Source: an uncultured Gemmobacter sp.
GTDB taxonomy: Bacteria; Pseudomonadota; Alphaproteobacteria; Rhodobacterales; Rhodobacteraceae
Reading direction: 5' to 3'
DNA length: 64,000 nt
Assembly: GCA_964439015.1 (NCBI GenBank)
Contig: CAYTMV010000001.1
Location: 34,174 to 98,173, forward strand
Shown here: piece after piece, positions 35,172 to 56,370 of the stretch
Layout: each line of letters begins with the position of its first letter
How positions within the stretch are numbered: position 1 is the stretch's first letter
Notes under the pieces: model-generated
Database searches by the model: none
What the model saw: the letters and a program-made list of their open reading frames with translations, nothing else
Told to the model about the DNA's origin: nothing
Position numbers and translations under genes: made by a program

Positions 35172-35205
35172 CGGCGGCGCTCCAAACGCGTCCTATGATG
35201 AAAAC

Positions 35206-35371: not shown

Positions 35372-35385
35372 TTGATGCATGTCAA
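35372..35385. promoter_or_regulatory. FNR box TTGATGCATGTCAA upstream of ccoG
   Basis: One mismatch to consensus. A -10-like TATCAA (35409..35414) places the box centre within 1 bp of -41.5. Confidence 0.65.
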
Positions 35386-35506
35386 AGTTGAGACCGCCAC
35401 CGATCCGCTATCAAGCATCATAGGCGGTCTCGACCCGCCAGATTTCAAGGGATGACTCGCGGCCCACCCCCGCGCTGCCAGCCAGAACGCCAGTCGGAGA
35501 ATCTCC

Positions 35507-36934: not shown

Positions 36935-37013
36935 GCGCGGTGGCGAAAAAATGACGGGACGGCGCGGCCCCCCTGGGGGCCGCAAATCATGACGGACAGC
37001 AAAGGAAAGCCCT

Positions 37014-37472
37014 ATGGGAGAGATCACCGGCCGCAAGGTTTTTGCCATTACCGCAAGTGCCTTTGCGGTGATCATCGCGGTGAACGTCTTCATGGCGGTC
37101 AAGGCGGTCTCGACATTTCCGGGGCTTGAGGTCGGCAATTCCTACGTTGCCTCGCAAAGTTTTGACGCGGACCGCAACGCGCAGGCAATGCTCGACTGGA
37201 CGCTGACTCACGAGTTCGACGCTGCCGCCAAACAATTGCGACTCACCTTTCTCGATGCCAATGGCCAGCCCGCGCAGCTGTCAGACTTGCAGGTTCTGGT
37301 AGGCCGGCCCACTTCGGCAGCCGATGACATGCGGCCCGAGTTCATCCGCCAGGGGGGCGCCTATATCGCCGGGGTTGATCTGCAGCCCGGCAAGTGGATG
37401 CTGCATGTCGAGGCCCGCTCGCAAAGCGGTGTGCACTTCAAGCAGCGGCTCGATCTGTTGATCAAGGGGTGA
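37014..37472 (+). CDS. ccoH: FixH/CcoH family protein
   Basis: 152 aa with a single N-terminal helix, at the conserved position. Confidence 0.85.
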   Translation: MGEITGRKVFAITASAFAVIIAVNVFMAVKAVSTFPGLEVGNSYVASQSFDADRNAQAMLDWTLTHEFDAAAKQLRLTFLDANGQPAQLSDLQVLVGRPTSAADDMRPEFIRQGGAYIAGVDLQPGKWMLHVEARSQSGVHFKQRLDLLIKG

Positions 37473-37476
37473 TGCG

Positions 37477-39699
37477 ATGACACTGGCGCAGCCGATCCAG
37501 CCCACTGTGCAGGAGGATGACGGCCACATCGGCCCGTCGGCTTGCCCGGCCTGTGTCGTTGCCCCCTCGGCCGAGCGGTTGGCGCAAATGTCGGCGGTGG
37601 GGCAAGCGCGGCTGATGCTGTCGATCCCCACCGCGCATTGCGCCGCCTGCATGGTGACGGTCGAGGATGCGCTGCAGGCGTTGCCCGGTGTGCATTCGGC
37701 CCGCGTGAACCTGACGCTGAAGCGTGTTTCAGTCGATGCCGACCCCGACGTGACACCCGAGGCCGCGATCGCCGCGCTGAAGGGCGTTGGCTATGAGGCG
37801 CATGAGCTGGACCCCGGTCTGCTGTCCGCGACCGAGACCGACCGTCAGGGCCGCGACTTGCTGATGCGGCTGGGTGTGGCCTTCTTTGCGATGATGAACG
37901 TCATGCTGCTGTCGGTCGCCGTCTGGTCGGGGGCCGAGGACGCAACGCGCGACATGTTCCACTGGATTTCGGCGGCCATCGCGCTGCCGACCGTGGTGTT
38001 CGTGGGGCAACCCTTCTTCAAATCGGCCTGGGCCTCGCTGCGGGTGGGGCGGCTGGGCATGGATGTGCCGATCAGCCTGGCGTTGATCCTCGCCTCGGGC
38101 ATCTCGCTGTTCGAGACCTTCAAGGGCGGGCATCACGCCTATTTCGACGCGGCGGTGATGCTGGCCTTCTTTTTGCTGGGCGGGCGCTATCTGGACCATC
38201 GCACGCGCGCCGTGGCGCGCTCGGCCGCAGAAGAACTGGCCGCGCTGGAAGTGCCGCGCGCCCTGCGCGTGACGGAGGCCGGCGACGAAACCGTGGCGAT
38301 CTCGGATCTGGTGGTGGGCGATCTGGTCCGGGTGCGGCCGGGCGCGCGGATGCCGGTCGATGGAATCGTGGTCGAGGGCACCTCCGAGGTGGACCGCTCG
38401 CTTCTGACTGGCGAAAGCCTGCCGGTCTGGGCCGGGCCTGAGGCTGTGGTTTCGGCCGGCGAGGTCAACCTGACGGGCCCGTTGCTGGTGCGCGTCACCG
38501 CTGCGGGACGGGATTCAAGCCTGCACCGCATGGCGGATCTGGTCGCCGTGGCCGAGGCCGCCAAGACCCGCTACACCAGTCTGGCCGAGCAGGCATCGCG
38601 CCTCTATTCGCCCTTGGTGCATCTGCTGTCGTTTACCGCCTTCGGCTACTGGATGTGGCGCACCGGCGGCGATCTGCGCTATGCGGTGAACATCTCGGCG
38701 GCGGTGCTGATCATCACCTGCCCCTGCGCCCTGGGCCTTGCCGTGCCGGCGGTGGTTACATCGGCCAGCGGCAAGCTGTTCCGCAAGGGGCTGCTGATCA
38801 AGGAAGGCACCGCGCTGGAGCGGTTGGCCGAGGTGGACACGGTGGTCTTCGACAAGACCGGCACGCTGACCATGGGCACACCGCAGCCGACCAATCTTGG
38901 CGATCACCCGCGGCAGGCGGCCGAAGTGGCGCTGGCGCTGGCCGAGGCCTCGGGCCATCCGCTGGCGCGCGCCTTGGTCGAGGGCGCCCGCGCAGCCGGA
39001 CTGCATCCCGCCCGGGTGGACGATCTGCGCGAGGTGCCGGGTTACGGAATCGAGGGCGTCTGGCGTGGCCAGCGCGTGCGGCTGGGGCGCGCGTCGTGGT
39101 GTGGTGCGGATGAGCTGGACGTGACGGCGACCTATCTCTGCCTGTCCGAGGGCCGCCCGCGGCCCTTTACCTTTATCGACTCCCCCCGCCCCGGGGCCGA
39201 GGCGCTGGTCAAGGCGCTGAAGGATCAGGGCAAGCGGGTGATGCTGGTTTCGGGGGACAGCGCGGCTGCGGTGGCGGCGACCGCCGCGCGGCTGGGGATC
39301 GACGAATGGCAGGCGGGTGCCCTGCCGGCCGAGAAATCGGCGCTGGTGTCGCAACTGACCGCCGACGGGGCAAGGGTGCTGATGGTGGGCGACGGGCTGA
39401 ACGATACCGCGGCGCTGGCCGCGGCGCATGTCTCGATCTCGCCGGCTTCGGCGCTGGATGCGGCGCGCGTGGCCTCGGACATGGTGCTGCTGGGGCAGGA
39501 CATCGCGCCGATTGCCGATGCCGCCCGGATCGCCCGGCAGGCGCGCGCCCGGATCAAGGAAAACTTTGCTGCTTCGGCCTTGTATAACGTGATCGCCGTG
39601 CCGTTGGCTCTGGTGGGGCTGGCCACGCCCTTGGCGGCGGCGGCGGCAATGTCGATCAGTTCCATCACCGTGTCGCTGAACGCGCTGCGGCTGAAATGA
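37477..39699 (+). CDS. ccoI: copper-translocating P1B-type ATPase CcoI/FixI
   Basis: 740 aa with the CPC motif (ITCPCALG), DKTGTLT phosphorylation site and GDGLNDTAAL hinge. Confidence 0.9.
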   Translation: MTLAQPIQPTVQEDDGHIGPSACPACVVAPSAERLAQMSAVGQARLMLSIPTAHCAACMVTVEDALQALPGVHSARVNLTLKRVSVDADPDVTPEAAIAALKGVGYEAHELDPGLLSATETDRQGRDLLMRLGVAFFAMMNVMLLSVAVWSGAEDATRDMFHWISAAIALPTVVFVGQPFFKSAWASLRVGRLGMDVPISLALILASGISLFETFKGGHHAYFDAAVMLAFFLLGGRYLDHRTRAVARSAAEELAALEVPRALRVTEAGDETVAISDLVVGDLVRVRPGARMPVDGIVVEGTSEVDRSLLTGESLPVWAGPEAVVSAGEVNLTGPLLVRVTAAGRDSSLHRMADLVAVAEAAKTRYTSLAEQASRLYSPLVHLLSFTAFGYWMWRTGGDLRYAVNISAAVLIITCPCALGLAVPAVVTSASGKLFRKGLLIKEGTALERLAEVDTVVFDKTGTLTMGTPQPTNLGDHPRQAAEVALALAEASGHPLARALVEGARAAGLHPARVDDLREVPGYGIEGVWRGQRVRLGRASWCGADELDVTATYLCLSEGRPRPFTFIDSPRPGAEALVKALKDQGKRVMLVSGDSAAAVAATAARLGIDEWQAGALPAEKSALVSQLTADGARVLMVGDGLNDTAALAAAHVSISPASALDAARVASDMVLLGQDIAPIADAARIARQARARIKENFAASALYNVIAVPLALVGLATPLAAAAAMSISSITVSLNALRLK

Positions 39700-39896: not shown

Positions 39897-40853
39897 TCAG
39901 CGCCAGTCGAAGAAGCCCTTCGGGGCCTGGGCCAGCAGGCGGCGGGCCAGATCGGCCCCCAGTGCTGCGCCATCGGCAATCATGCCGCGGGCTTCGCCAG
40001 CGATGACTTCGGATCCGTCGGGACGCAGGATTTCGCCCCGTAGCCAGATCTCGCCCCCTTCCAGCAGTGCCAGCCCGGCAATCGGCGTCTCGCAAGAGCC
40101 GTCGAGGGTCGCGAGATAGGCGCGCTCGGCGGCGAGGCGGTGCCCGGTTTCGGTGTGGTGGATCGCGGCCAGCATGGCCTCGGCCCGCGTGTCGTCCAGC
40201 CGACGCTCGATGCCGATGGCGCCTTGGGCTACCGCGGGCAGCATCTCATCCACCGCGATGGCCGAGCGTGCCACATCGGCCATGCCCAGCCGGTTCAGTC
40301 CGGCCATGGCGAGGAAGGTGGCAACCGCCACGCCATCCTCGAGTTTTTTCATCCGGGTCTGCACATTGCCCCGAAACTCGACCAGTTTCAGGTCGGGCCG
40401 GCGATGGGCCAGTTGCGCGCGGCGGCGCAGGCTGGAGGAGCCGACGGTCGCGCCCTGCGGCAGATCGGCCAGCCGGGCGACAGAGGGCGAGACAAAGGCA
40501 TCGCGCACATCTTCGCGCGGCAGGTAGGTGTCGAGGATCAGCCCCGCGGGCTGGGCGACCGGCATGTCCTTCATCGAATGGACGGCGATGTCGATCCCCC
40601 CCGACAGCAGCGCCTCTTCGATCTCCTTGGTAAACAGCCCCTTGCCGCCGATCTCTTTCAGCGGGCGGTCCAGCACCCGGTCGCCGGTGGTCTTGATCAC
40701 CACGATCTCGAAGGCGGCCTCGGGCAGGCCGAAGGCCGCCATCAGCCGGCGGCGGGTCTCATGGGCCTGCGCCAGAGCCAGCGGCGAGCCGCGGGTGCCG
40801 ATCTTCAGGGGCTGGGCGGGGGTGGGGAGAGGCTTGGTCATGACCGAAGGCAT
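39897..40853 (-). CDS. hemC: hydroxymethylbilane synthase
   Basis: Motifs are KIGTRGSPLALAQA and the cofactor-binding GSCETPIAG. The start is at MPSVMTKP; an alternative ATG lies at 40841. The 497-aa ORF call is over-extended. Confidence 0.85.
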   Translation of the reverse strand: MPSVMTKPLPTPAQPLKIGTRGSPLALAQAHETRRRLMAAFGLPEAAFEIVVIKTTGDRVLDRPLKEIGGKGLFTKEIEEALLSGGIDIAVHSMKDMPVAQPAGLILDTYLPREDVRDAFVSPSVARLADLPQGATVGSSSLRRRAQLAHRRPDLKLVEFRGNVQTRMKKLEDGVAVATFLAMAGLNRLGMADVARSAIAVDEMLPAVAQGAIGIERRLDDTRAEAMLAAIHHTETGHRLAAERAYLATLDGSCETPIAGLALLEGGEIWLRGEILRPDGSEVIAGEARGMIADGAALGADLARRLLAQAPKGFFDWR

Positions 40854-41045
40854 AGCGGCAAGGCGATGGCGTTTCAACTGTGGCAGGCGCGCGCGGGGGG
40901 CTTTGCCCCCCTCTTGGCCTGCGGCCAATTCACCCCCCAGGATATTTGCGCCTGAATGATGGGCAAGCACATGGCGACACCCTGACACGCTTGACCTTCC
41001 GGGGCCGGACAGGCAGACCGGTTGGCGACTGGACAGGAGCCCGCC

Positions 41046-42077
41046 ATGACTGAAAAGCTGATCCTCCGTGCGCTGAAGGGCGAGATTCTGCCAACGCCGC
41101 CGATCTGGATGATGCGGCAGGCAGGGCGCTATCTGCCGGAATACCGGGCAACGCGGGCAGAGGCCGGAGATTTTCTTTCGCTGTGCTATAACCCGGAATT
41201 GGCGGCCGAGGTGACCTTGCAGCCGATCCGGCGCTATGGCTTTGATGCGGCGATCCTCTTTGCCGACATCCTGCTGTTGCCGCAGGCGCTGGGACCGAAG
41301 CTGTGGTTTGAAACCGGCGAAGGTCCGCGGATGGAGACGACCACGACGATGGCGCAGGTGCAGGCGTTGAAGCCGAAAGAGGCGATCCATGACATGCTGG
41401 CACCGGTCTATGAAACCGTGCGTATCCTGTCACGAGAGCTGCCGCGCGAGACCACGCTGATCGGGTTTGCCGGGGCGCCCTGGACGGTCGCCACCTACAT
41501 GATTGCCGGGCGCGGGTCAAAGGATCAGGGCGCGGCGCATCGGCTGAAGGATAGCGACCGGGCGACCTTTGTTGCGCTGATCGAGGTGATTACCGAGGCG
41601 ACCATCGACTACCTCTCCGAGCAGGTGAAGGCCGGGGCCGAGGTGGTCAAGCTGTTCGACAGTTGGGCCGGCAGCCTGAAGGGGGCGGATTTTACCGATT
41701 TCGCGCTGAAGCCCGCCGCCCGCATCATTGCGGAACTCAAGGCGCGCCACCCCGGTCTGCCGATCATCGCCTTTCCGCGCGAGGCGGGGCAGGGCTATAT
41801 CGGGTTTGCCAAGGCGACCGGGGCCGATTGCGTGGCAATCGACAATTCCGTCACGCCCGAATGGGCGGCGGCAAATGTGCAGGTCGATGGCTGCGTGCAG
41901 GGTAATCTGGCGCCGCACCATCTGGTGACCGGGGGTGAGGCGCTGGTGCGCGAAACCCGGCGCGTGGTCGAGGCCTTCCGCAACGGTCCGCATATCTTCA
42001 ACCTCGGCCATGGCATTACGCCGGACGCTGACCCCGAGAATGTGGCGCGGATGATCGCGGCGGTGCGGGGGGCGTGA
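41046..42077 (+). CDS. hemE: uroporphyrinogen decarboxylase
   Basis: 343 aa with a CAGGAG RBS and the [15 protein letters not shown] motif. Confidence 0.9.
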
Positions 42078-42086: not shown

Positions 42087-42422
42087 TCAGACCGTCAGCC
42101 CCATCTCGCGCAGCGCGGTCAGGGCGGCTTCGGCCCCCTCGCAGGTTTTCAGCCGCACGGCCACCGTGCCTGCATAGCCGAAGCGGCCCGACAGCGCGGG
42201 GCGGATCGTCGCTTCCAGACCCAGCGGGCCAAGGGTCAGCGCGTCCAACGCATCCTCGGCGCCAAAGCCTTCGTCATTCACCTCGAACCAGATCGGGCCG
42301 CCGTCGAGGGCTTGGCTGAACAGCACGTAATCGTCGCGCTTCGGGTCGACGAAGCCAACGAAACGCCGGCCATCCTCTGCCGTCACAGTGGCATAGCCCG
42401 CCTTCACCACGATATCCGCCAT
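42087..42422 (-). CDS. hypothetical small cytoplasmic protein
   Basis: 111 aa from MADIVVKAGY. It has no TM helix and I recognise no family. It sits at the hemE-proximal edge of the accessory block, divergent from the diflavin reductase. Confidence 0.4.
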   Translation of the reverse strand: MADIVVKAGYATVTAEDGRRFVGFVDPKRDDYVLFSQALDGGPIWFEVNDEGFGAEDALDALTLGPLGLEATIRPALSGRFGYAGTVAVRLKTCEGAEAALTALREMGLTV

Positions 42423-42588
42423 CTTGCCGTCCTCCATTCTGTCGGGTGCATACGCGGTTTGGCGCTCTTTCACCACGTCGTTTTCCGGGGCGTGGCCTTG
42501 GTGGAGGCGCGTGGACGGCACGCACCTGTTCCGAGTGCAGCGTTCCGGAAGGATGGATGTGCCGGTTGTTTTACCCCCCTGCGCAATC

Positions 42589-42604
42589 TGGCACAGGTCT
42601 TGCA
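42589..42604 (+). promoter_or_regulatory. sigma-54 (-24/-12) promoter TGGCAC-AGGTC-TTGCA
   Basis: Perfect match to TGGCAC-N5-TTGCA, 26-38 nt upstream of the reductase start codons. A 21-nt stretch including it is identical to the promoter at 56279..56299. Confidence 0.75.
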
Positions 42605-42641
42605 TGGGGAGGGAAAGGTTTCCGTCAAGATGAGATGTCCC

Positions 42642-44309
42642 ATGCAGCAGGTAGTTCCCGTCGCGCAGAGCCAGCAGGGCGCGGCTTCGATTCATGTATT
42701 GTTCGGCACCCAGACCGGCACGACCGAAATGGTCGCATCGGATATCGAGGACGCGCTGGCGGCCAAGGGCTTTGCGGTCTCTGCCCCGCGCGGTCTGGAT
42801 GAGGTGACCATGGCCGAGCTTTCCGGTCTGGGCACGGTGCTGGTTGTCTGCTCAAGCTATGGCGATGGCTGGTTTCCGGATGCGGCGGTCGATTTCTACG
42901 AGGCGCTGACCGCGCCGGATGCGCCGGATCTGACGGGTCTCAGCTTTGCTGTGCTTGGGTTTGGCGACAGCGGTTATGATGATTTCTGCGCGGCCGGTCG
43001 TCTGCTGGACGAGGCGTTGGCGGCCTGTGGGGCCTTGCGTATCCACCCTCGCGGCAGCTGCGACATTGTCTATGAGCAGGCTGCCGAAACCTGGACGGAG
43101 GGCGTGCTGTCGGTGCTGCAAACACGCCGCGCCGAGGGTGCGGTGGCGGCCGTGGCCGCGCCCGTGGTGCTGCGGGAAAAAGGTGAGCGCCCGAAATGGA
43201 CCCGCGCCCATCCCTGCGCGGCGCGGCTGGTGGAAAACCGTCTGTTGTCCGATCCCGCCTCGGACAAGGAAATCCGGCATTTCCGCATCGAGCTGGGCGA
43301 GGACGGGCCGGCTTATGAGGTCGGGGATGCGCTGAACATCCTGCCGGAAAACGATCCGGCACTGGTCGAGGCTTGGCTTGACCGCAGCGGCGTCGCGCCC
43401 GAGACGGTCCTTCCGGGCCATGATCGCCCCTTTGCCGACATGCTGCGGGATGGTCTGGAGATCGTGACCCCCTCGCGGGAATTGCTGGAGTTGATGGCCA
43501 AACGCGCAGCGGGGGGGGAACTTGGGCGGCTGATGGCACAAGGCGACCGCGCCGGGCTTGAGGCCTGGCTGTGGGGGCGCGATGCGCTGGACCTTCTGAC
43601 GGAGGTGCCCGAAGTCACGCTGTCGCCTGAGGAGCTTGTATCGGTGCTGCGTCCGCTGCAGCATCGGTCCTATTCGATTGCCTCCAGTGCGCGGGTCTTG
43701 CCGCATGCAGTGGATCTGACGGTGTCGGTGGTGCGCTTTGACAGAAATGGGCGGGCCCATGGCGGGGTCTGCTCGACCTATCTGGCAGACCGGCTGCCGG
43801 TCGGTGGCGCGGTGAACGTGTTTGTTACGCCCAATTCGGCGTTCCGGGTGCCGTCGGACCCGGCGGTGCCGATGATCATGGTTGGTCCCGGCGCCGGCAT
43901 CGCCCCGTTCATCGGCTTTTTGCAGGAGCGTGCGGCGGTCGGCGCAACGGGCAGCAACTGGCTGTTCTTCGGTGATCGGCGCCGCGCGCATGACTTCATC
44001 TATCGCGCCGAGCTGGAGGCGTGGCAGCAGCAGGGGGTTTTGACCCGGCTGGATCTGGCCTTCTCGCGCGATGGCGCGGAAAAGGTCTATGTGCAGGACC
44101 GGATGCGCGCCGCCGGGGCCGATCTTTTTGCCGCACTGGAGGCAGGGGGGCATTTTTACGTCTGCGGTGACGCGCAGCGCATGGCCCCCGATGTCGAGGC
44201 GGCGCTGCTTGAGGTCATTGCCGAGCATGGCGGTCTGGATGCTGCGGGGGCGCAGGAATATCTGGCGCGGTTGCGGCGCGAAAGGCGCTATCTGCGCGAC
44301 GTTTACTGA
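42642..44309 (+). CDS. diflavin reductase (flavodoxin + FAD/NADPH domains, CysJ/CPR-like)
   Basis: FMN motifs are VLFGTQTGTTE and SSYGDGWFPD. The FAD motif is RSYSIASS and the NADPH motif is GPGAGIAPFIGF, with a C-terminal RYLRDVY. The start is at MQQVV; an alternative ATG lies at 42630. Confidence 0.8.
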   Translation: MQQVVPVAQSQQGAASIHVLFGTQTGTTEMVASDIEDALAAKGFAVSAPRGLDEVTMAELSGLGTVLVVCSSYGDGWFPDAAVDFYEALTAPDAPDLTGLSFAVLGFGDSGYDDFCAAGRLLDEALAACGALRIHPRGSCDIVYEQAAETWTEGVLSVLQTRRAEGAVAAVAAPVVLREKGERPKWTRAHPCAARLVENRLLSDPASDKEIRHFRIELGEDGPAYEVGDALNILPENDPALVEAWLDRSGVAPETVLPGHDRPFADMLRDGLEIVTPSRELLELMAKRAAGGELGRLMAQGDRAGLEAWLWGRDALDLLTEVPEVTLSPEELVSVLRPLQHRSYSIASSARVLPHAVDLTVSVVRFDRNGRAHGGVCSTYLADRLPVGGAVNVFVTPNSAFRVPSDPAVPMIMVGPGAGIAPFIGFLQERAAVGATGSNWLFFGDRRRAHDFIYRAELEAWQQQGVLTRLDLAFSRDGAEKVYVQDRMRAAGADLFAALEAGGHFYVCGDAQRMAPDVEAALLEVIAEHGGLDAAGAQEYLARLRRERRYLRDVY

Positions 44310-44330
44310 TCGCACTCCTTCAGGATGGCA

Positions 44331-44365
44331 AAGGCCGCGCCCCGGTCAAGGGCGCGGCCTTTTCG
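44331..44365. terminator. bidirectional terminator between the reductase and the amidotransferase-like gene
   Basis: 12-bp stem AAGGCCGCGCCC/GGGCGCGGCCTT followed by TTTCGG. Confidence 0.6.
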
Positions 44366-44384: not shown

Positions 44385-45101
44385 TCAGCCGGCCTTCGCC
44401 TCGATACCTGCGCCGCGCATCAGGGCGGCGACCTTGCGGGCAAGCGGGGCATTGTCGACCTCAGACTGCGCGAGTTTGCCCTTGGCTTCGGCGGCGTGGT
44501 CGTGGCTGATCCACTCACCCGCCAGATCATCCGTCAGATCCTGCATGAATTCCTTTGTGAATTCAGGGTGAAACTGGACACTCAAGGCAGGGAAGTCATA
44601 GGCAATGACGCCAAAGGGGCAGAAATCATTGCCCCCGGACGAGCGGGCCGAGGGTGGCAGAACCTCGACCTGATCCTGATGGAAGACCAGGACGTCCTGA
44701 GGGGCGAGGCCAAGATCGCCGAAATGATAGGGCTGCGGTCCGGTGGCCACGCCCTTGTCGGATTTGCGCACCGCGCCGCCAAAGGCTGCCGCCATGATCT
44801 GATGGCCAAAGCAGATGCCGAACATCGGGATGCGCGCCTCGGCCAGACGGTTGAGGAAACGCTGCACATCCAGCATCCAGGGCAGGTTTTCATAGACGCC
44901 ATGCTTTGAGCCGGTCAGCAGATAGCCATCATAGTCCGCCGGATCTTCTGGCAGGGCCTCGCCCGAGACGACGCTGATAGTGGTAAATGTGGCTTCTGGC
45001 AGGGCCGGGCCAAGCCAGTTGCGCGCCATCTGCGGATATGTCCCGTGCTGGTCACGCAATTGCTCGGGGGTAAGGCCGTTTTCAATGATGCAGATTTTCA
45101 T
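44385..45101 (-). CDS. class I glutamine amidotransferase-like protein (PuuD-type gamma-glutamyl amide hydrolase candidate)
   Basis: 238 aa with the GATase1 nucleophile elbow GICFGHQ and a His (FHPE) near the C-terminus. Confidence 0.7.
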   Translation of the reverse strand: MKICIIENGLTPEQLRDQHGTYPQMARNWLGPALPEATFTTISVVSGEALPEDPADYDGYLLTGSKHGVYENLPWMLDVQRFLNRLAEARIPMFGICFGHQIMAAAFGGAVRKSDKGVATGPQPYHFGDLGLAPQDVLVFHQDQVEVLPPSARSSGGNDFCPFGVIAYDFPALSVQFHPEFTKEFMQDLTDDLAGEWISHDHAAEAKGKLAQSEVDNAPLARKVAALMRGAGIEAKAG

Positions 45102-46697: not shown

Positions 46698-48200
46698 TCA
46701 GGGCAGGCAGTTCATGTAACGCCCGATGTCCCAATTGGTGACTTCCTTCAGGAAACGCTGCCAATCGTCGCGCTTCATCAGGTCATACAGCTCGTAGAGG
46801 CGGCCAGGCATGGCCTCCAGCACGATCGGGTCGGCCGCCAACGCGTCCAGCGCCTCTTTGAGGTTCATCGGGATCAGGTCGACATGCTCACCGGCCTTCA
46901 TCACCTCGACCACGTTGCGGGTTTCCGCCGGGCCGGGGTCGATGCCTTCGCGGATGCCTTCGTCGATCGCCTTCAGCAGCGCGCCGCAGAACAGGTAGGG
47001 GTTCACCATCGCATCCACCGCGCGGAACTCGAACCGGTCGGGCGAGGAGATGCGGATGGTGCAAGAGCGGTTCTGCGGACCCCAGTTGGCCCCGATCGGC
47101 GCCCAGAGGCCGACATCGGCAAAGCGGCGATAGGAGTTGACGGTCGAGGCCCCGATGGCGGTCAGCGCACCGATATGCTTCAGCGCACCGCCAAGGGCAT
47201 GCAGACCCAGTTGCGACGGCATCCAGCTGCCGTCCTTGCCCTCGAACTCGTTGGTGCCGCCGCGGTTATAGGTGAACACCTCTTCCATGCCCGGCAGATC
47301 GCCCTCGACCGAGCGGACGATCTCGTCGCCGTCGCCGCGCCACAGCGAGCAGTTGTGGTGGCATCCCAGCGCCGGATAGCCGACCATCGGCTTGGCCATG
47401 AAGCAGGCCTTCAGCCCGTGCTGCCGCGCCACCTCGTCGGCGATCTGGCGATAAGTGGTCAGGCGGTCGCAGGTGCGCAGCGCGTTGTCGAAGCTGAAAT
47501 TCAGCTCCAGCAGGCCCGGCGCATCCTCGACATCGCCCTGAACCATATCGAGGCCCATCGCCTCGGCATATTCATAGACCTGGGTCCACAGACCGCGCAC
47601 CGACTCGAACTGGCCGATGTGATAGGCATGCGGACCGGTGATCCCTTCATAGGGGAAGGCGCTGCCGTCATTGGTGGGGCGCAGCCACAGCATCTCGGGC
47701 TCCAGCCCCAGACGCAGGTGCAGACCGTCATGGGCGGCGCGGAATTCGCGCTCGAAACGCTTGAGGTTGCCGCGCACGTCGCATTCGAAATACATGCCCG
47801 GATTGACGTCTTCCTCAAGGCTGCGGAACAGCGTGCAGAACACCCGGCCGACATTCTTGTCCCACGGCAGTTGCACGAAGGTTTCCGGGTCGGGCAGGGC
47901 CAGCAACTCGCCGTCATTGGCCGAAAAGCCGTAAAGCTGGCCGTGGATGTCGCTGGCCACGTCGGTCACGCCGCCGATCCAGGTCTGGATGCCTTTCTTG
48001 GCGGTCCGTTCCCAATGGCGGGCGGGCAGCGCCTTGCCCAGAACGCGACCGGTGATCGTCACGAATTGGTAGTAGATGTATTTCACGCCGGTGGCGTTGA
48101 TCTTCTCGCGCACCCGGGCAATCCGCTCCTGACGCTGCGGGTCCGCGATTTCGCGGAACAGATCGCATTCTGCCAGTGTGGAAAAGTGATCTTTTGCCAT
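46698..48200 (-). CDS. glutamine synthetase family ligase (gamma-glutamyl-amide synthetase candidate)
   Basis: 500 aa. GS catalytic-domain motifs are retained: LEPEMLWL, DVEDAPGLLELNF, KPMVGYPALGCHHNCSLW, NSYRRF and FEFRAVDAMVNPY. Confidence 0.8.
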   Translation of the reverse strand: MAKDHFSTLAECDLFREIADPQRQERIARVREKINATGVKYIYYQFVTITGRVLGKALPARHWERTAKKGIQTWIGGVTDVASDIHGQLYGFSANDGELLALPDPETFVQLPWDKNVGRVFCTLFRSLEEDVNPGMYFECDVRGNLKRFEREFRAAHDGLHLRLGLEPEMLWLRPTNDGSAFPYEGITGPHAYHIGQFESVRGLWTQVYEYAEAMGLDMVQGDVEDAPGLLELNFSFDNALRTCDRLTTYRQIADEVARQHGLKACFMAKPMVGYPALGCHHNCSLWRGDGDEIVRSVEGDLPGMEEVFTYNRGGTNEFEGKDGSWMPSQLGLHALGGALKHIGALTAIGASTVNSYRRFADVGLWAPIGANWGPQNRSCTIRISSPDRFEFRAVDAMVNPYLFCGALLKAIDEGIREGIDPGPAETRNVVEVMKAGEHVDLIPMNLKEALDALAADPIVLEAMPGRLYELYDLMKRDDWQRFLKEVTNWDIGRYMNCLP

Positions 48201-48239: not shown

Positions 48240-49550
48240 TCACCCTTCGAGGTAACGGCGTCTTTCGGCATCGCTGACCTCGCGGGCGAGGCTGGCGGTT
48301 TCGGCGGCGCAAAAGGCCGTGAAATTGTCGATGAAGGCCCCGCCGAACAGGCGGCGGGCATGATCGCTGGCGGCCAGGCGGGCGGCGGCCTCGGGCAGGG
48401 TGCCAGGCAGACGCGCGCCCACGATGTCATCCGGGCCGGAATTGGGGCTGGGATCGGGGGCCTGCAGCCCGCGTGCGATGCCGTCGAGGCCCGCGCCCAG
48501 CATCAGCGCCAGCGTCAGATGGGTGTTGCAATCCGTGCCGGGCAGGCGGAACTCCAACCGCGCGGTGTCGCCGGCCGAGGGGCAGGAGCGGACCGCCGTG
48601 GTAAAGCACCAATCCGACCAGCTGACCGATTTCGGCGCCCAGGTCCCCGGCGCGAAGCGGCGATAGGCGTTGACGGTGTGGGCGCAAAGCGCAAACGCTT
48701 CGGGCACGATCTGGGTCATGCCGCCGATGAAATTGCGGGCCAGCGCGTTGGTTTCGCCTGCGGGATCGGCAAACAGGTTGCGCCCCGTCGCCTTGTCGAT
48801 CAGCGACAGCGTGACGTGACCGCCCAGCCCCGGATAATCCGGCCCCAGCGAGGGCATGAACGTCGCGGTCATGTTGCGCTGGCGGGCAAAGGCGCGGCTG
48901 GCCAGCCGGAAGAAACTGGCGTCATCCGCGGCCTTGAGGCCGTTGGTTGCGCCCAGCGTGGCCTCGAAACAGCCCGGCCCCAGCTCGCCGCCGACGCCGA
49001 ACAGGTCGATGCCATGGGCCAGCAGCGCCTGTTCCCATGCGGTGACAAAGGCTGCCTCGGTCGCGGCGGTCGTGCCGGACCAGCACTTGTTGTCGGCGGC
49101 AAACTGGGCCGGCGGCGCAAAGCCCCTGGCGCGCAGGCTGGACGCAGTTTCATTGAGAAAGATCACCTCGAACTCGAAGGCGGCGCGCACGTCAAAGCCC
49201 ATCTCGGCCGCACGGGCGATCTGCGCTTTCAGCACGTTGCGCGGCATGATCGGCGCATATTGGCCCGCCAGATCGGCGATGATCGCGGCCGAGCGCGCCT
49301 CGAACCCGAAGGGGCGCAAAGACGCGGTGTCGATCTCCAGCTCTTCGGTGCGATAGGGGCCGCCGCCGAACAGGGCTTCGCCCGCATCCCAATGGCCGAC
49401 GACATTGGCAAAGCGCGGCTCTGCGGCCCATTGCAGAAACTGGTCGCGGCGCAGCCTGCGTTCGCGAAACAGGCCCATATTGTCGAACTGGCCGACATGG
49501 ATGATGTCGTAACCGTGGTCATGCAGCAGTTGGCTGAGGCTTTTGGCCAT
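48240..49550 (-). CDS. glutamine synthetase family protein, divergent paralog
   Basis: 436 aa. It has the GS fold motifs FEFEVIFL, GGELGPGCFEATL, NAYRRF and LEFRLPGTD. The ATP/His motif reads GLGGHVTLSL, so the second His of the GS H-x-H pair is not conserved. Confidence 0.75.
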   Translation of the reverse strand: MAKSLSQLLHDHGYDIIHVGQFDNMGLFRERRLRRDQFLQWAAEPRFANVVGHWDAGEALFGGGPYRTEELEIDTASLRPFGFEARSAAIIADLAGQYAPIMPRNVLKAQIARAAEMGFDVRAAFEFEVIFLNETASSLRARGFAPPAQFAADNKCWSGTTAATEAAFVTAWEQALLAHGIDLFGVGGELGPGCFEATLGATNGLKAADDASFFRLASRAFARQRNMTATFMPSLGPDYPGLGGHVTLSLIDKATGRNLFADPAGETNALARNFIGGMTQIVPEAFALCAHTVNAYRRFAPGTWAPKSVSWSDWCFTTAVRSCPSAGDTARLEFRLPGTDCNTHLTLALMLGAGLDGIARGLQAPDPSPNSGPDDIVGARLPGTLPEAAARLAASDHARRLFGGAFIDNFTAFCAAETASLAREVSDAERRRYLEG

Positions 49551-49613: not shown

Positions 49614-50822
49614 TCAGACTTCGGGATCGAAGGCCATCGGCATCGTCAGCGGGCCGGTATTGCCGCTGTCGCGCAGGAAGGTCGGCTCGGCGCTGTAGCG
49701 CGGGTTGCGGATGCGTTGCGCCAGCAGCGACAGCGCCTCGGTCATGTCGCCACGGGCGATGAAGTGGCCGATGCAGTGATGCGGCCCCAGCCCGAAGCCG
49801 AAATGGTTCTTGCGGTCGGTGACGGTGATGTCGAAGCCGGGAGTGTCGAAGGCGCGCGGGTCCGAGCAGGCAGACTGGCTGAAGATGTGGACGGTGGTGC
49901 CCTTCTTGATCGCCAGATCCTGAAACTCGAAATCCTCCAGCGCCTCGCGCGTGACCCAGGTGACGGTGGGGCGCACGCGCATCACCTCTTCCACTGCCAC
50001 CCGCGCCAGATCGGGGTTCTGGCCCAGCAGCGCCCATTGATCCGGGTGGCGCAGGAAGGTGTCCATCGCCAGACCGATCTGGTTGCGGGTGGTGTCGATG
50101 CCGCCAAAGACCGACAGCACGATCATGTCGATCATTTCCTGTTCGCTCAGCGCATCGGCGCTTTCCTGATTGGCGCGGATCAGGGATGAGACAAAGCCGT
50201 CATCCAGCCCCTTGGCGCGCAGATCGTCGACGATCCCCTGCGCATAGGCGAACATCATGTCAGTGGCCGCGTTGATCTGGTCCTGATCCTGTTTGTAGCT
50301 GGTGCCCAAGGCCATGCCCATCTGCACGGCCAGATCGACCAGATACTCCCAATCGCCCTGATTGGTGCCCAGCAGCAGGCAGATCACCCGCGTCGCATAG
50401 GGCTCGGCAAAGGCGCGGACAAAGTCGCACTCGCCCTTTTTGGCGAAACCGTCGATCAGCTCATTCGCGAGGTTCTGGAATTCGGGGCGCAGCACCTTGA
50501 CCAGCTTGGGCGAAAAGGCGGGGTTGGCCAGCTTGCGCAGGCGCTGATGGTCCGCGCCCTCGCGGTTCAGCATGATGCGCAGCCACCAGTCGGCCCAGCT
50601 GCCGGTCGCCTGATTATGCGCAGGCCAGGCGTAGGAGCCCTGCCGCAGCCGCGTGTCGCGGATCAGTTGCGAGACCTCTGCATAGCGCAGCACGGCGATG
50701 CCATAGGGGGTGCGCGCATACCAGCTGCGTTCGCGCGCATCCGCGACCTCCTGCGACCGCATCGAGAAGTTCGGGTCGGTCAGATCAAGGTAAGGGGCAT
50801 TGTCGAGTGTGGCGGTATCCAT
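49614..50822 (-). CDS. cytochrome P450
   Basis: 402 aa from MDTATL with a GGGAGA RBS. The I-helix is GGIDTT, the ExxR is EEVMRVRP and the haem ligand loop is FGFGLGPHHCIGHF. Confidence 0.85.
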   Translation of the reverse strand: MDTATLDNAPYLDLTDPNFSMRSQEVADARERSWYARTPYGIAVLRYAEVSQLIRDTRLRQGSYAWPAHNQATGSWADWWLRIMLNREGADHQRLRKLANPAFSPKLVKVLRPEFQNLANELIDGFAKKGECDFVRAFAEPYATRVICLLLGTNQGDWEYLVDLAVQMGMALGTSYKQDQDQINAATDMMFAYAQGIVDDLRAKGLDDGFVSSLIRANQESADALSEQEMIDMIVLSVFGGIDTTRNQIGLAMDTFLRHPDQWALLGQNPDLARVAVEEVMRVRPTVTWVTREALEDFEFQDLAIKKGTTVHIFSQSACSDPRAFDTPGFDITVTDRKNHFGFGLGPHHCIGHFIARGDMTEALSLLAQRIRNPRYSAEPTFLRDSGNTGPLTMPMAFDPEV

Positions 50823-50872: not shown

Positions 50873-50889
50873 TGAAATTGCCGTGCCAG
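50873..50889 (-). promoter_or_regulatory. sigma-54-like promoter CTGGCACG-GCAA-TTTCA
   Basis: The -24 element TGGCACG is perfect. The -12 element is TTTCA instead of TTGCA, so the conserved G is replaced. It lies 50 nt upstream of the P450 ATG, immediately after the rpoN paralog. Confidence 0.45.
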
Positions 50890-52281: not shown

Positions 52282-53676
52282 TCAGTCGGCCGGTTTGGTC
52301 TTGCGGACGATCGTGCCGATATCGACATCAAGGGCCGCGGCCGCCTTGCGCTTGCTGCCATGCATCGCAATTGCGGACTCGATCAGTTGACGCTCGTAGC
52401 GGGCGACCATCTCCTTGAGGGTCTTGCCTTCGATCGGTGTGACCGGGGGCGGGGCATCCGCGGTGACGGTGCCGCCTTCAAGGACGGGCGTCAGCTCATC
52501 TTCGCCCATGATCGAGATCTGCTGGATGATGTTGTAGAGTTCGCGGATATTGCCGGGATAATCATAGGTCATCAGCCGGGCGTGGAGTTCGGCGCTGAGG
52601 ACCAGCGGCTCTGACCGGCGCTGATTGACGATGGCGACAAACCGCTCGATCAGATGCGCGATCAGTTCGGGCGTGTCGCGCAGCGGGCGGATCGGCAGCT
52701 TGACCACCGCCAGCCGGTGATAGAGATCGCGCCGGAAGGTCCGGTCGTTCACCATCTCCAGCAATTCGCGATTGGTGGCCGAAATCACCCGCACATGCAC
52801 GGCCCGCGGCTTTGAGCCGCCAACGCGCTGCACCGTGCCATCCTCCAGAAACGACAGCAGTTTGGATTGCAGATGCAGAGGGATCTCGCCGACCTCGTCG
52901 AGAAACAGCGTGCCGCCCTCGGCCTGCTCGATCAGCCCCTTCTTGCCCGAGCTGAGCGCGCCGGTGAACGCGCCTTTCTCATAGCCGAACAGCTCGGATT
53001 CAAACAGCGTATCGGGAATGGCCGCGCAATTCACGACGATGAAGGGGTCAGAGGCGTCGCTGACGTGGCGGTGCAGGTGGCGGGCGATCTCGGTCTTGCC
53101 GACGCCGCTTTCGCCCGTGATGATGACCCGCGCATCCTGCACCAACGCGCGTTCGTCCAGGGCAATGATGCGGTCGAGGTAGGAGCAGATCTGCCGCTGG
53201 CGCAGGAAATCCGGGCGCACCTTGCGTTCGGCGCCGGGGGTGCGGCCCGCATGGGGCAGGCCAGTCGCGCGGCGTCGGGCATGGTCAAAGACCTCGAGGT
53301 CGCGCAGCTGCATCACCATGCCGCCATCCCCGCCCATCACCCGCCGCAGGGTCACGAAAACCGCCCCGCGGATCCCGCCGCGCAGCACGAAATCGCCATT
53401 GCCCTGCCGTTCGACCGCGCCCAGCACGGTATCCCAGTCATAGCCCCCCACGGAGCCCAGCGCCTCGGCATCCTGACCGGCCAGATCGGCGCCCTTGATG
53501 CCAAGGATCTGCCCGGCCTCGGCATTGATGAACACAAGGCGGCGGTCGCGGTTGATGACGACGATCCCGTCGGCAAAAGAGGCAACGCTGCGCAGGATCA
53601 GGTCGGTTGCGTCGCCCAGAGTGGGCGGGCGCGACCTGTGGGAAGGTGCCGTTTCCTCTGGGCGGGGGCTGGTCAT
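52282..53676 (-). CDS. sigma-54-dependent transcriptional activator (PAS-AAA+-HTH)
   Basis: 464 aa with Walker A GESGVGKT, the GAFTGA loop, Walker B LFLDEVGE and a C-terminal Fis-type HTH. Its ATG overlaps the stop of the upstream PAS gene (ATGA). Confidence 0.85.
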   Translation of the reverse strand: MTSPRPEETAPSHRSRPPTLGDATDLILRSVASFADGIVVINRDRRLVFINAEAGQILGIKGADLAGQDAEALGSVGGYDWDTVLGAVERQGNGDFVLRGGIRGAVFVTLRRVMGGDGGMVMQLRDLEVFDHARRRATGLPHAGRTPGAERKVRPDFLRQRQICSYLDRIIALDERALVQDARVIITGESGVGKTEIARHLHRHVSDASDPFIVVNCAAIPDTLFESELFGYEKGAFTGALSSGKKGLIEQAEGGTLFLDEVGEIPLHLQSKLLSFLEDGTVQRVGGSKPRAVHVRVISATNRELLEMVNDRTFRRDLYHRLAVVKLPIRPLRDTPELIAHLIERFVAIVNQRRSEPLVLSAELHARLMTYDYPGNIRELYNIIQQISIMGEDELTPVLEGGTVTADAPPPVTPIEGKTLKEMVARYERQLIESAIAMHGSKRKAAAALDVDIGTIVRKTKPAD

Positions 53677-54875
53677 TTTGCCAGGATCTCGTCTTGCTGG
53701 GGATCATCGGGCATCCGCGCCTGCGGCTTGCGGAGGGTGACGGCCAGATAGGGCAGGCCGCGCGTCTCGAACCGGCGGGCGTTCACTTCAGCCTGGATCG
53801 GCCCGTCATGGTGCTGGGCGTCGACCAGGATCGGCGCCCGCAGCGCCCCGGTCACGCTTTGCTCGGTCAGGGTCATCAGGCGATGCGGATGCGCGGCGGC
53901 GCTGACCAGCTTTTCCAGCGGCTGGCCGACGATCATGTCGGTGTTCATGCCAAAGAAAACCCGGGCGGCGGTGTTGGCCAGCAGGATCAGGCCGCTGCCA
54001 TCGACCAGCAGCAGGGCCTCGGGCACTGCCACGAGGGCCAGTTCCAGATCGCCCATCCGCTTGCGCAGCTCGTCATTGCGGCGCAGGTGCTTGGAGACAT
54101 CGCGCACCGTGCCCCACATCCTGTGCAGCTGGTTGTTGCGGATCAGCCCGCGCACGTCGTTTTCGACATCGACCGTGGTGCCGTCGTAACGGGTGTCGTG
54201 GGACAGCGCGCGCACCACGTCAAAGTTGTTGCGCAGCAGGAAAAGCGCGAAGGCCTCGTTTCCCGGGTTGCGGTCGAAGATCTCTCGCACCGGCCGGTCA
54301 TTCAGATCCTGATCATCCGGCAGCCGGTAAAACCGCCCCATCGCGGCGTTGCAAAACCGCCAATGCCGGCGGTTCTCGAACATCTGGCGTACGATCTCCT
54401 GCTCCGGGGCGGACAGGTCAACCGGCTCGGCATATTCGATGCACCAGCTGGGATCGTCCGAGGCGTTGAGGATGTCGATCAACACCGCCTTGCCCTCGGC
54501 AAGGGCGTCGCGGTCGGCAAAAGAGGCGTGATGCCATTTGAAGGTCCGCAGGGTCCGTGTCGGACCCGAGCCCTCAACCTCGACGACCGCACAGACGTTC
54601 TGTGGCCTTCCATCGGCGCGGCGCAGTTCAAGCACAAGGGCCTTGGGCGCGTTTTGGGGGTGGTCAAGGATGTTGGAAAGATGTGCGCGGGCGCTGCGGC
54701 TGTAGATCCGCGACCAGTCGGCGCCCGTGATCTCTTCTGTCGCATAACCCAGCCATGCGGCCTGACGGTCGTCGCAAGCCAGGATGATCCCCTGATCCGA
54801 AATGCGGTCGATCATCGCCACGTTCTCATCCTCTGGCGAGGGGATCGGGGAAGATGCGGCGGAAACGGGTGTCAT
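53673..54875 (-). CDS. multi-PAS-domain protein without output domain
   Basis: 400 aa with PAS-like repeats (for example ILACDDRQAAWLGYATEEITG and LLVDGSGLILLANTAARVFFG). I detect no kinase, GGDEF, HTH or receiver motif. The start codon is uncertain because there is no clear RBS. Confidence 0.6.
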   Translation of the reverse strand: MTPVSAASSPIPSPEDENVAMIDRISDQGIILACDDRQAAWLGYATEEITGADWSRIYSRSARAHLSNILDHPQNAPKALVLELRRADGRPQNVCAVVEVEGSGPTRTLRTFKWHHASFADRDALAEGKAVLIDILNASDDPSWCIEYAEPVDLSAPEQEIVRQMFENRRHWRFCNAAMGRFYRLPDDQDLNDRPVREIFDRNPGNEAFALFLLRNNFDVVRALSHDTRYDGTTVDVENDVRGLIRNNQLHRMWGTVRDVSKHLRRNDELRKRMGDLELALVAVPEALLLVDGSGLILLANTAARVFFGMNTDMIVGQPLEKLVSAAAHPHRLMTLTEQSVTGALRAPILVDAQHHDGPIQAEVNARRFETRGLPYLAVTLRKPQARMPDDPQQDEILAK

Positions 54876-55023: not shown

Positions 55024-56238
55024 TCAGGCCGCGCTTGGCACGCGCCGACGCAGGCCCCGCAGGCTGCGATAGGCGATGAACGCGCCGCCAAGCGTGGCGA
55101 GGATCAGCAGGTTATTCACATGCCCGACAATGACATAGCTGCCATCCGCGATCAGCGCGCCCCCAAGGCTGGGCCCGACGAACAGGCCGACCATCAGCGC
55201 GCTGCCTGCCGCGGCCGCCACCCGGCCCTCCACATCCATCTCGGCGGCAAGGGCCGTCAGATAGGACAGGCAGAAGAAATAGCTGCCAACCCAGAACAGC
55301 GCCGAAATCGAATAGAGCGTGGCATCATTGGACGCCTGGCTGACCAGATAGGTCACCAGACCCGAGGCGATGATTCCGACGACCAGTGGCAGACGCAGGC
55401 CAAACCGCGCCCCGATCACCGTTGCCAGCAGCGGACCGACAAGCCCGAACAGCGCCGAGTTCGCCAGAAGCGCGCCAACCTCGGCTTCGCTCAGTCCCGC
55501 TTCCATGCCGGTCGTGGCGATGAACGCCCACGAAATGGTGTCGCGCAACGAGAAGCAGAAGAAGGCGATCAGGATGGCGATGCCGCCCATGTCGAGGATC
55601 GAGAAGTGGCCACGATCGGTCTGGTGCGCCTTCACGAACTCCTGGGTCGGTGCGGCTTTCGGCAGAAACACCAGCAAAGGCGACAGGACGGCAACGGTGC
55701 CGGCCAATGCCAGATAGACCCCGGTTTGCCCGTAGGCCTCGCTGATCGGGCCGAAGATCCGGGAAATGACCGCCATCACGAAGACGAACAGCACGGTCAT
55801 GTGGCCGGCAAACTTTTCGGGCTGCTCTGCATTGGCGACGGTTGCATTGCCGGTGGCCAGCGCCAGACCCGCGCCCAGACCAGCGCAGGTCCGCAGCACC
55901 ATCAGCGACTCATAGCTGCCCCAGATGGCGCTGGCGAGGTTGGCCAGGACGACGATGGCCGCGCCTGCCATCGCAACCGTGCGGCGGTTGATGACCGCGA
56001 CCCGCGGCGCAAGCAGCACCGAAGTCACGAAGACGCCGGCAAATTCCAATGTGCTGAGCAAACCGGCCTGGGCCTCGTCAAGGCCGAGGCTGGCCATGTT
56101 GGCACCCACCATGAAGGGCAGCGCGATCAGCGCCAGCAATCCGGTGCCATAGGCAGCGGCAAAGGCGGCCAGCAAGGTGCCCCAGTTGTTGGGCATCAAA
56201 TCCCTGAGCCCTCCGGGGGCGAGGGGTCTTTCGGTCAT
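55024..56238 (-). CDS. MFS transporter
   Basis: 404 aa from MTERPLAP with a GGGAGA RBS and a 12-helix profile. The longer ORF call (to 56313) would swallow the sigma-54 promoter. Confidence 0.75.
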   Translation of the reverse strand: MTERPLAPGGLRDLMPNNWGTLLAAFAAAYGTGLLALIALPFMVGANMASLGLDEAQAGLLSTLEFAGVFVTSVLLAPRVAVINRRTVAMAGAAIVVLANLASAIWGSYESLMVLRTCAGLGAGLALATGNATVANAEQPEKFAGHMTVLFVFVMAVISRIFGPISEAYGQTGVYLALAGTVAVLSPLLVFLPKAAPTQEFVKAHQTDRGHFSILDMGGIAILIAFFCFSLRDTISWAFIATTGMEAGLSEAEVGALLANSALFGLVGPLLATVIGARFGLRLPLVVGIIASGLVTYLVSQASNDATLYSISALFWVGSYFFCLSYLTALAAEMDVEGRVAAAAGSALMVGLFVGPSLGGALIADGSYVIVGHVNNLLILATLGGAFIAYRSLRGLRRRVPSAA

Positions 56239-56279
56239 GGCAGTCTCCCTGTTTGTCTTGTTTTTCTGTTGATCGGGGA

Positions 56280-56295
56280 TGCAAGACCTGTGCCA
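56280..56295 (-). promoter_or_regulatory. sigma-54 (-24/-12) promoter TGGCAC-AGGTC-TTGCA
   Basis: Perfect consensus on the minus strand, 42 nt upstream of the MFS ATG. It lies within a 21-nt stretch identical to 42585..42605. Confidence 0.75.
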
Positions 56296-56370
56296 GATTT
56301 GTCCACCTGACAAGAAACCTGTCGTTTCAACACGCTAGGCTTGCGGGGCGGTTGGTGTTGTATCCAGTGG

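Follow-up and report, generated by a model that had tools for sequence, protein, structure and literature searches.

A stand-alone CysJ-type diflavin reductase as the probable redox partner of a cytochrome P450 in a Gemmobacter gene island

We analysed a 64-kb stretch of DNA from an uncultured Gemmobacter sp. (contig CAYTMV010000001.1), here called the window, to which all coordinates refer unless another locus is named. The gene under study, at 42642-44309 on the plus strand, encodes a stand-alone diflavin reductase with flavin mononucleotide (FMN), flavin adenine dinucleotide (FAD) and nicotinamide adenine dinucleotide phosphate (NADPH) domains. From its relatives and its genomic setting we conclude that this protein is very probably the dedicated NADPH-dependent redox partner of the cytochrome P450 encoded in the adjoining gene island (49614-50822, minus strand). 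A preliminary description of the window had proposed such a partnership, and it is now supported by synteny that is conserved in all eight loci with a readable context, by natural fusions of the two proteins, by the replacement of the reductase with other electron-transfer partners in related loci and by sigma-54 promoters.

Synteny of the reductase with the P450 operon

A neighbour-joining tree was built from the 120 best homologues of the reductase, and the window protein fell into a small separate clade (P0001-P0010). Genomic context was readable for eight members of this clade (the window and loci L001, L002, L005 from Oricola nitratireducens, L087, L088, L089 and L090). All eight adjoin an operon of the form GATase-(ALDH)-GS-GS-P450, in which the P450 gene is accompanied by genes for a glutamine amidotransferase-type (GATase) protein, an aldehyde dehydrogenase (ALDH) and two glutamine-synthetase-like (GS-like) proteins. 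The GATase gene is kept beside the reductase gene in L001, L002, L087, L089 and L090. The outer flanks vary and comprise hemE in the window, a LysR gene in L002, major facilitator superfamily (MFS) genes in L001 and L090, and insertion sequence (IS) elements in L088. In L001, the MFS protein encoded next to the reductase is a homologue of the window's island transporter (75% identical). A link of the reductase to haem biosynthesis, for which its neighbour hemE might speak, was rejected because the hemE flank is not conserved in the relatives.

The marine-type locus L088 (6184-14950) has IS66- and IS110-family transposase genes between GATase and reductase, and the orientation of its reductase gene is altered. 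CBASS-like defence genes (SMODS, patatin, Cap15-like) adjoin this locus.

Seven of the ten closest homologues (P0002-P0004 and P0006-P0009; 694-717 aa) carry two tandem, apparently intact FMN domains before the FAD/NADPH module. Genes of this kind were located at 10001-12127 in L001, 16442-18550 in L005, 171-2312 in L089 and 2842-4983 in L090. The two copies are 56-62% identical to each other and the FMN motifs are kept in both; the FMN domain of the window protein is 72-73% identical to copy 1 and 61-62% identical to copy 2. We know of no description of a three-flavin-domain reductase of this tandem-FMN kind.

Fused reductases and alternative partners of related P450s

Three homologues (P0031, P0068 and P0074; 964-969 aa) combine a P450 and a diflavin reductase in one polypeptide. 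Their first 400 residues share 65% identity with the P450 of the window, and the rest shares 51% with its reductase. The linker is short, and the fusions contain no iron-sulfur module. P0074 originates from Ciceribacter naphthalenivorans, and fusions are carried by nine species genomes (Ciceribacter, Allorhizobium, Rhizobium and an Ensifer metagenome-assembled genome). Behind the fused gene lie the two GS-like genes also present in the window, and ahead of it are genes for a GATase, a PAS-domain protein and an enhancer-binding protein (EBP). Fusion of P450 and reductase is confined to relatives from the Rhizobiales; in the window the two genes are separate and convergent.

We surveyed the P450 with one genome per species, which gave 283 relatives, and analysed the best 80 (59-78% identical). 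A 61-aa iron-sulfur ferredoxin and a Pyr_redox_2 ferredoxin reductase were encoded beside the P450 in 32 of the 80 loci (Rhodobacterales, Xanthobacter, Hyphomicrobium and others), and a 419-aa AdR-like flavoprotein together with a 149-aa flavodoxin in 15 (Pseudomonas oleovorans and Pseudomonas citronellolis groups, Halomonas and Zobellella). The fused diflavin reductase accounted for nine loci (Rhizobiales), a stand-alone diflavin reductase at the operon end for one (Oricola nitratireducens), and no partner was adjacent to the P450 in 23 loci from various taxa. The stand-alone type additionally occurred in the window and in six metagenomic loci.

Each partner type corresponded to a coherent subclade of the P450 tree. 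The P450s with a stand-alone reductase formed a clade that is sister to the flavodoxin-using clade, so that an FMN donor is the norm in that region of the tree. The fusion P450s were sister to a ferredoxin-using Xanthobacter group. In the reductase tree, the fused domains nested inside a family of 585-aa proteins (see below) and the stand-alone proteins formed a clade of their own. Taken together, the P450 tree and the reductase tree suggest that a diflavin reductase was recruited to the P450 twice and independently, a conclusion that is provisional because both trees are distance-based and lack support values.

We propose that NADPH would reduce the FAD in the C-terminal ferredoxin-reductase-like module of the window protein and that the FAD would pass electrons singly to the FMN in the N-terminal flavodoxin-like domain. 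The FMN domain would then dock on the P450 and reduce its haem directly, with no ferredoxin or other iron-sulfur carrier in between. Direct transfer from FMN to haem is supported by the fusions without an iron-sulfur module and by the use of flavodoxin in the sister clade. Alternatively, the reductase may serve the P450 via an unlinked ferredoxin or flavodoxin encoded elsewhere. Many of the orthologous P450s do use a ferredoxin, and the Bacillus megaterium reductase BmCPR has routinely been combined with one (Fdx2 or adrenodoxin) to drive P450s in vitro (PMC6123783). However, an orthologous P450 is fused straight to the FMN domain through the short linker, flavodoxin is the direct donor in the sister P450 clade, and the relatives with tandem domains have duplicated the FMN domain instead of recruiting a ferredoxin. 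The preliminary description had noted that no ferredoxin gene was visible, and tblastn searches with the partner proteins of the related loci likewise found no ferredoxin, ferredoxin reductase, AdR-like reductase or separate flavodoxin in the window, hence no carrier gene in the island. We consider an unlinked carrier unlikely and favour direct reduction of the P450 by the reductase.

Sigma-54 promoters of the reductase gene and the island

A sigma-54 promoter, AATCTGGCACAGGTCTTGCAT, is located 37 nt upstream of the reductase ATG. A second copy of AATCTGGCACAGGTCTTGCAT lies 41 nt upstream of the ATG (56238) of the MFS gene, the first gene of the island. The pattern TGGCAC-N5-TTGCA matched twice in 64 kb against 0.04 matches expected, and none of 100 shuffled sequences reached two. 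In the preliminary description the reductase was co-regulated through an identical sigma-54 promoter; the identity is real and extends over 21 nt, but the gene that carries the second copy is the MFS gene and not the P450. The site before the P450, TGGCACGGCAATTTC, is located 51 nt upstream of its ATG (50822) and is weaker than the AATCTGGCACAGGTCTTGCAT sites.

In the position equivalent to TGGCACGGCAATTTC, strong TGGCAC-N5-TTGCAT sites precede the P450 gene in L001, L002, L005 and L087; in L002, L005 and L087 the reductase gene also has a site of this sequence ahead of it. Locus L001 has consensus sigma-54 sites before its P450, PAS and MFS genes and a two-mismatch site before its reductase gene. 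Consensus sigma-54 promoters were also found upstream of the fused P450-reductase genes.

Since the reductase gene has the same type of sigma-54 promoter as the operon, we infer that it is switched on together with it. The PAS/EBP pair and the island's own sigma-54 factor (RpoN) would bring about induction via the three promoters of the window. A private RpoN gene adjoins the operon in the window, L001, L002, L005 and L089, which is every locus of the stand-alone clade whose contig extends there. Loci with other partner types have no adjacent rpoN and retain the PAS-EBP pair alone. Upstream of the three window promoters, no shared enhancer k-mer of at least 9 nt was found beyond the promoter itself, and we claim no enhancer site because the candidate palindromes differ between the promoters. 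The published work on RpoN3/AprX of C. sphaeroides describes a different regulon.

The reductase and GATase genes converge on a hairpin at 44330-44363 that has a perfect GC-rich stem of 13 bp, with A and U runs on its flanks. Folding of the segment 44295-44400 gave -54.8 kcal/mol (z = -4.06), and none of 200 shuffled sequences was as stable.

The reductase protein and its relation to CysJ

The open reading frame (ORF) of the reductase has 555 codons and zero internal stops. Translation and Pfam searches agree with the 555-aa FMN and FAD/NADPH protein first described, including the motifs TQTGTTE, RSYSIASS, GPGAGIAPF and a C-terminal RYLRDVY. Pfam placed Flavodoxin_1 at aa 19-150 (92 bits; ~42696-43091), FAD_binding_1, the FAD/connecting domain, at aa 188-380 (92 bits; ~43203-43781) and NAD_binding_1, the NADPH domain, at aa 413-519 (56 bits; ~43878-44198). 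Residues 16-555 align with the solved structure of E. coli SiR-FP (388 bits). In the residue alignment with this protein, the motifs for FMN (TQTG, YGDG and GDSGY), FAD (RSYSIASS and GGVCSTYL) and NADPH (GPGAGIAPF, FSRD and YVCGD) are kept, and the protein ends in the aromatic residue Tyr, like CysJ. Because the flavin and NADPH motifs and the terminal aromatic residue are conserved, the protein looks fully functional.

The start at ATG 42642 is backed by homologues that open with MQHALPVA (MQQVVPVA in the window). A 665-aa ORF from TTG 42312 was rejected, as the homologues begin at the ATG-equivalent site and the upstream stretch overlaps the promoter and a minus-strand ORF; the longer reading frame is an artefact of high G+C. 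Wastewater metagenome contigs have a 6-nt insertion, GGCCGT, at 43147, which lengthens the Ala/Val-rich FMN-FAD linker by two residues; P0001 (97% identical) is extended likewise. The FMN-FAD hinge thus appears tolerant of changes in length.

By similarity the reductase is of the CysJ type and not of the eukaryotic CPR or BM3 type, with PDB scores of 388 bits for CysJ, 248 for CPR and 219-231 for BM3-type reductases. The original designation 'CPR/CysJ-like' was thus apt in that the protein is a complete diflavin reductase of CysJ type, but it does not belong with eukaryote-type CPR (388 against 248 bits). To judge from the NCBIfam profiles it is not a CysJ equivalog either, as it reached 524 bits with TIGR01931 (E = 5e-157) against a cut-off of 668.15 and 438.3 bits with NF008197 against a cut-off of 838. 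Alignments with the cysJ profiles begin at profile positions 53-54, so that the first ~52 CysJ residues are missing and only ~15 residues precede the FMN domain. In E. coli CysJ, the N-terminal segment of ~50 residues serves oligomerisation. A scan of the 48 main ORFs of the window yielded no NIR_SIR domain, which would mark cysI, and no cysI was found in the eight reductase-clade loci examined. The argument that the missing cysI neighbour speaks against a CysJ role therefore stands, and the sub-cut-off scores and the lacking N-terminal segment add to it.

The nearest large sister family comprises proteins of ~585 aa that are 49-54% identical to the window reductase and have an N-terminal PFSxxQxxWLxGF motif. 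Two members were examined (L085 2512-9764 and L086 2509-9764), which belong to a Xanthobacteraceae bacterium and to Rhodococcus pyridinivorans; in both, the reductase gene overlaps the stop codon of a gene for a 1830-aa GltB-like protein with GATase_2, Glu_syn_central, Glu_synthase and GXGXG domains. This coupling suggests that the 585-aa family belongs to a diflavin-reductase-dependent glutamate-synthase-like enzyme rather than to sulfite reductase, and it renders the label 'sulfite reductase subunit alpha' unreliable for that family. The label is also the database name of the relatives of the window reductase, for whose clade it is probably wrong.

Since the sister family is partnered with a GltB-like protein, the reductase scaffold is promiscuous for its acceptor. 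The window reductase could accordingly feed another acceptor, such as a glutamate-synthase-like enzyme, or reduce quinones, iron or flavins in a general way, and its linkage to the island would then reflect shared induction. In addition to the translational coupling in the sister family, it fits this possibility that diflavin reductases reduce many artificial acceptors (PMC9687028). However, the island encodes neither a GltB-like protein nor any other evident redox acceptor, the P450 is the sole island enzyme needing an external electron donor, and the fusions and the partner replacement tie the type of reductase to the P450. We regard an acceptor other than the P450 as very unlikely. That the reductase is the organism's CysJ, belonging to an assimilatory NADPH-sulfite reductase and neighbouring the P450 island by chance, is very unlikely: its best family and structure matches and the names of its relatives are those of CysJ, but it misses both equivalog cut-offs and the N-terminal residues, no cysI was detected in the window, all eight clade members stand beside the P450 operon and not beside cys genes, the gene bears an island-type sigma-54 promoter, and even the family called 'sulfite reductase subunit alpha' couples to a GltB-like gene and not to cysI.

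Several observations weigh against a dedicated partnership of reductase and P450. The reductase gene is separate from, and convergent with, the transcription unit of the P450, and the -12 element of the P450-proximal promoter is a non-consensus TTTC (consensus TTGC). By sequence, the reductase is closest to CysJ, and the partner of its 585-aa sister family is the GltB-like protein and not a P450. The P450 and reductase trees are neighbour-joining trees without support values. Concerning expression, one wastewater run designated 'RNA-Seq' covers the island and the hem flanks evenly at ~30-50x, in a DNA-like manner, and true metatranscriptomes gave just a few locus contigs at 2-4x.

The island and its likely pathway

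The genes of the island (Table 1) are all on the minus strand, in the order MFS, PAS, EBP, RpoN, P450, GS-like A, GS-like B, ALDH and GATase, and converge on the reductase gene. The island sits between hemC/hemE (39897-42077) and hemF (56937-58055), and a cbb3 oxidase cluster, ccoNOQP/ccoGHIS (31435-39699), lies just upstream on the hemC/hemE side. At the borders of the island we found neither a tRNA gene nor any other mobile-element feature. Most related loci retain the PAS-EBP pair, and in most of them GS-like A directly follows the P450 or its partner genes. The best NCBIfam match of the ALDH was PuuC (541 bits, under the cut-off); those of GS-like B (type III GS and gamma-glutamylputrescine synthetase) were under their cut-offs as well. 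The ALDH start was picked by the length of its homologues (502-503 aa), and the RpoN start, MKINPGLDLRQ, was selected from the canonical N-terminus.

Table 1. Features of the reductase gene and the P450 island in the window
Feature	Position	Strand	Evidence
Sigma-54 (-24/-12) promoter of reductase, AATCTGGCACAGGTCTTGCAT, 21 nt	42585..42605	+	exact TGGCAC-N5-TTGCA match
Stand-alone CysJ-like diflavin (FMN + FAD/NADPH) reductase, 555 aa	42642..44309	+	Pfam domains, E. coli SiR-FP alignment, sub-cut-off cysJ profile scores
Putative bidirectional intrinsic terminator, GC-rich hairpin between convergent reductase and GATase genes	44330..44363	.	RNA fold
Class-I glutamine amidotransferase-like protein (PuuD-like gamma-glutamyl amide hydrolase candidate), last operon gene	44385..45101	-	Pfam GATase, Peptidase_C26
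NAD(P)-dependent aldehyde dehydrogenase, PuuC-like, 503 aa	45121..46632	-	Pfam Aldedh 552 bits
Glutamine-synthetase-like ligase B (gamma-glutamyl-amine synthetase candidate)	46698..48200	-	Pfam Gln-synt_C
Glutamine-synthetase-like protein A	48240..49550	-	Pfam Gln-synt_C
Cytochrome P450, 402 aa, class-I-sized, Cys-ligand loop FGFGLGPHHCIGHFIA	49614..50822	-	Pfam p450
Sigma-54-like site before P450, TGGCACGGCAATTTC	50874..50888	-	one mismatch to consensus
Island-private RpoN (sigma-54) paralogue, complete, 436 aa	50961..52271	-	Pfam Sigma54_AID, Sigma54_CBD, Sigma54_DBD
Sigma-54-dependent enhancer-binding protein, AAA+ with C-terminal HTH	52282..53676	-	Pfam Sigma54_activat 210 bits, HTH_50
PAS-domain sensor protein, translationally coupled to EBP	53673..54875	-	Pfam PAS_9, PAS
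MFS transporter (probable substrate uptake), first island gene	55024..56238	-	Pfam MFS_1
Sigma-54 promoter of MFS gene, 21/21 nt identical to reductase promoter	56279..56299	-	sequence match

Among named relatives, a Stappia sp. has the P450 closest to that of the window (87% identity). A P450 of Pseudomonas sp. KU43P is 66% identical and is encoded in a cluster (L091 8996-15227; AP019365.1) with the order P450, AdR-like reductase, flavodoxin, GATase and GS-like, to which divergent genes for a GATase, an ALDH and an aminotransferase also belong. We take this cluster to be, probably, the published pip cluster of KU43P, which reportedly encodes a piperidine/pyrrolidine pathway with a gamma-glutamylpiperidide synthetase and a P450. 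Gamma-glutamyl amine routes (Puu/Pau) employ a GS-like ligase, an oxidising enzyme, an aldehyde dehydrogenase and a GATase-type hydrolase, and in the P450 versions a P450 carries out the oxidation. In the ipu and pip pathways the ligase, P450, dehydrogenase and hydrolase are said to have these roles. The gene set of the island parallels that of such a route. The solved structures closest to the window P450 are 3p3l and 3p3o (260 bits), which we take to be AurH, presumably grouped with the cyclic-amine P450s PipA and MorA in the CYP151 family. PipA and MorA act in N-heterocycle oxidation (PMC9477822), and ipu is the isopropylamine pathway of Pseudomonas sp. KIE171 (cited in PMC10832564).

We propose that the window P450 hydroxylates a gamma-glutamylated small amine, because the gene set parallels Puu, Pau and ipu and because the P450 resembles those of KU43P and the CYP151-like group. 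The GS-like ligases would make the gamma-glutamylated amine, the P450 would hydroxylate it, and the aldehyde dehydrogenase and the GATase-type hydrolase would complete the pathway.

Two further ORFs of the window were recorded. An ORF of 116 aa (42087-42437, minus strand) between hemE and the reductase promoter has a coding-like G+C content at third codon positions and a GGAGG-type ribosome-binding site; it was excluded as a member of the system, as it has no Pfam or NCBIfam match and no homologue in the related loci. An Aldedh-family ORF at 9432-11843 (minus strand), beside a DeoC-like aldolase gene, is unusually long (803 aa), has two Aldedh matches and may be a fused or duplicated ALDH.

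Discussion

In the electron path that we propose, the window pair matches class II/VIII P450 systems, and the pathway follows the logic already known from gamma-glutamyl amine catabolism. The unusual feature is the genomic dedication of a free-standing, CysJ-derived diflavin reductase to a class-I-sized P450 of a proteobacterium.

With CysJ/SiR-FP, the window protein shares the FMN - connecting/FAD - NADPH architecture, the RY(L/Q)RDVY end and all cofactor motifs, but it lacks the N-terminal segment, scores below the cut-offs, has no cysI neighbour and is located in a P450 catabolic island. CYP102A1 (P450 BM3) and other self-sufficient P450s fused to CPR use the path from NADPH via FAD and FMN to haem that we infer for the window pair, and orthologues of the window P450 exist as natural diflavin fusions of ~965 aa. 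In contrast to CYP102A1, the window genes are separate and on opposite strands, the P450 is a class-I-type protein of ~400 aa and not a CYP102-type haem domain, and the match of the reductase to BM3-type reductases (219-231 bits) is weaker than that to CysJ. Eukaryotic microsomal CPR (class II) resembles the window system in the two-component logic of P450 plus diflavin reductase and in its homologous domains (248 bits). Unlike CPR, the window reductase has no N-terminal anchor extension, its FMN domain starting from about residue 16, and it ends in Tyr.

The island shares with the ipu (KIE171) and pip (KU43P) systems a set of GS-like ligase, P450, aldehyde dehydrogenase, GATase-type hydrolase and transporter. 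KU43P, however, has an AdR-like reductase plus flavodoxin where the window has one diflavin protein, ipu reportedly has a two-protein ferredoxin-type partner system, and two GS-like genes and an RpoN of its own set the window apart from both. We know of no conserved genomic link between BmCPR of Bacillus megaterium and a particular P450. BmCPR is likewise a soluble stand-alone bacterial diflavin reductase that drives P450s, but it was always paired with a ferredoxin (PMC6123783), whereas the window reductase is syntenic and co-promoted with one P450 family and, in relatives, fused to it.

The preliminary description considered a separate P450/reductase pair to be unusual in a bacterium. We agree; the precedent that we could document is BmCPR (PMC6123783), and the bacterial diflavin reductases listed in a review of FNR/flavodoxin-derived systems are sulfite reductase and P450 BM3 only (PMC9687028). 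In the open-access literature we found no description of the island cluster, the ~965-aa fusions, the tandem-FMN relatives or the pip genes of KU43P. The window reductase and its clade may therefore represent an undescribed class of dedicated, soluble, CysJ-derived bacterial P450 reductases with one FMN domain or two in tandem. These would have been recruited to a CYP151-like P450 that hydroxylates amines, in an event independent of the Rhizobiales fusions, and would be expressed from an island with its own sigma-54 paralogue. For this wider proposal we see the arguments as evenly balanced.

For most bacterial P450s the natural redox partner has yet to be identified (PMC6123783), which limits the use of these enzymes as catalysts. 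In the present case, genomic evidence by itself allows the partner to be assigned with high confidence, and a free-standing diflavin reductase that serves a class-I-sized P450 has rarely been documented from bacteria. The relatives with tandem FMN domains add another unexplored architecture. If the wider proposal is true, the P450 family would be a natural experiment, in which related enzymes receive electrons from a ferredoxin with its ferredoxin reductase, a flavodoxin with an AdR-like protein, a stand-alone diflavin reductase or a fused one. With the self-sufficient fusions and the two classical pairs, the family offers a matched set for studying donor switching and the origin of fusions.

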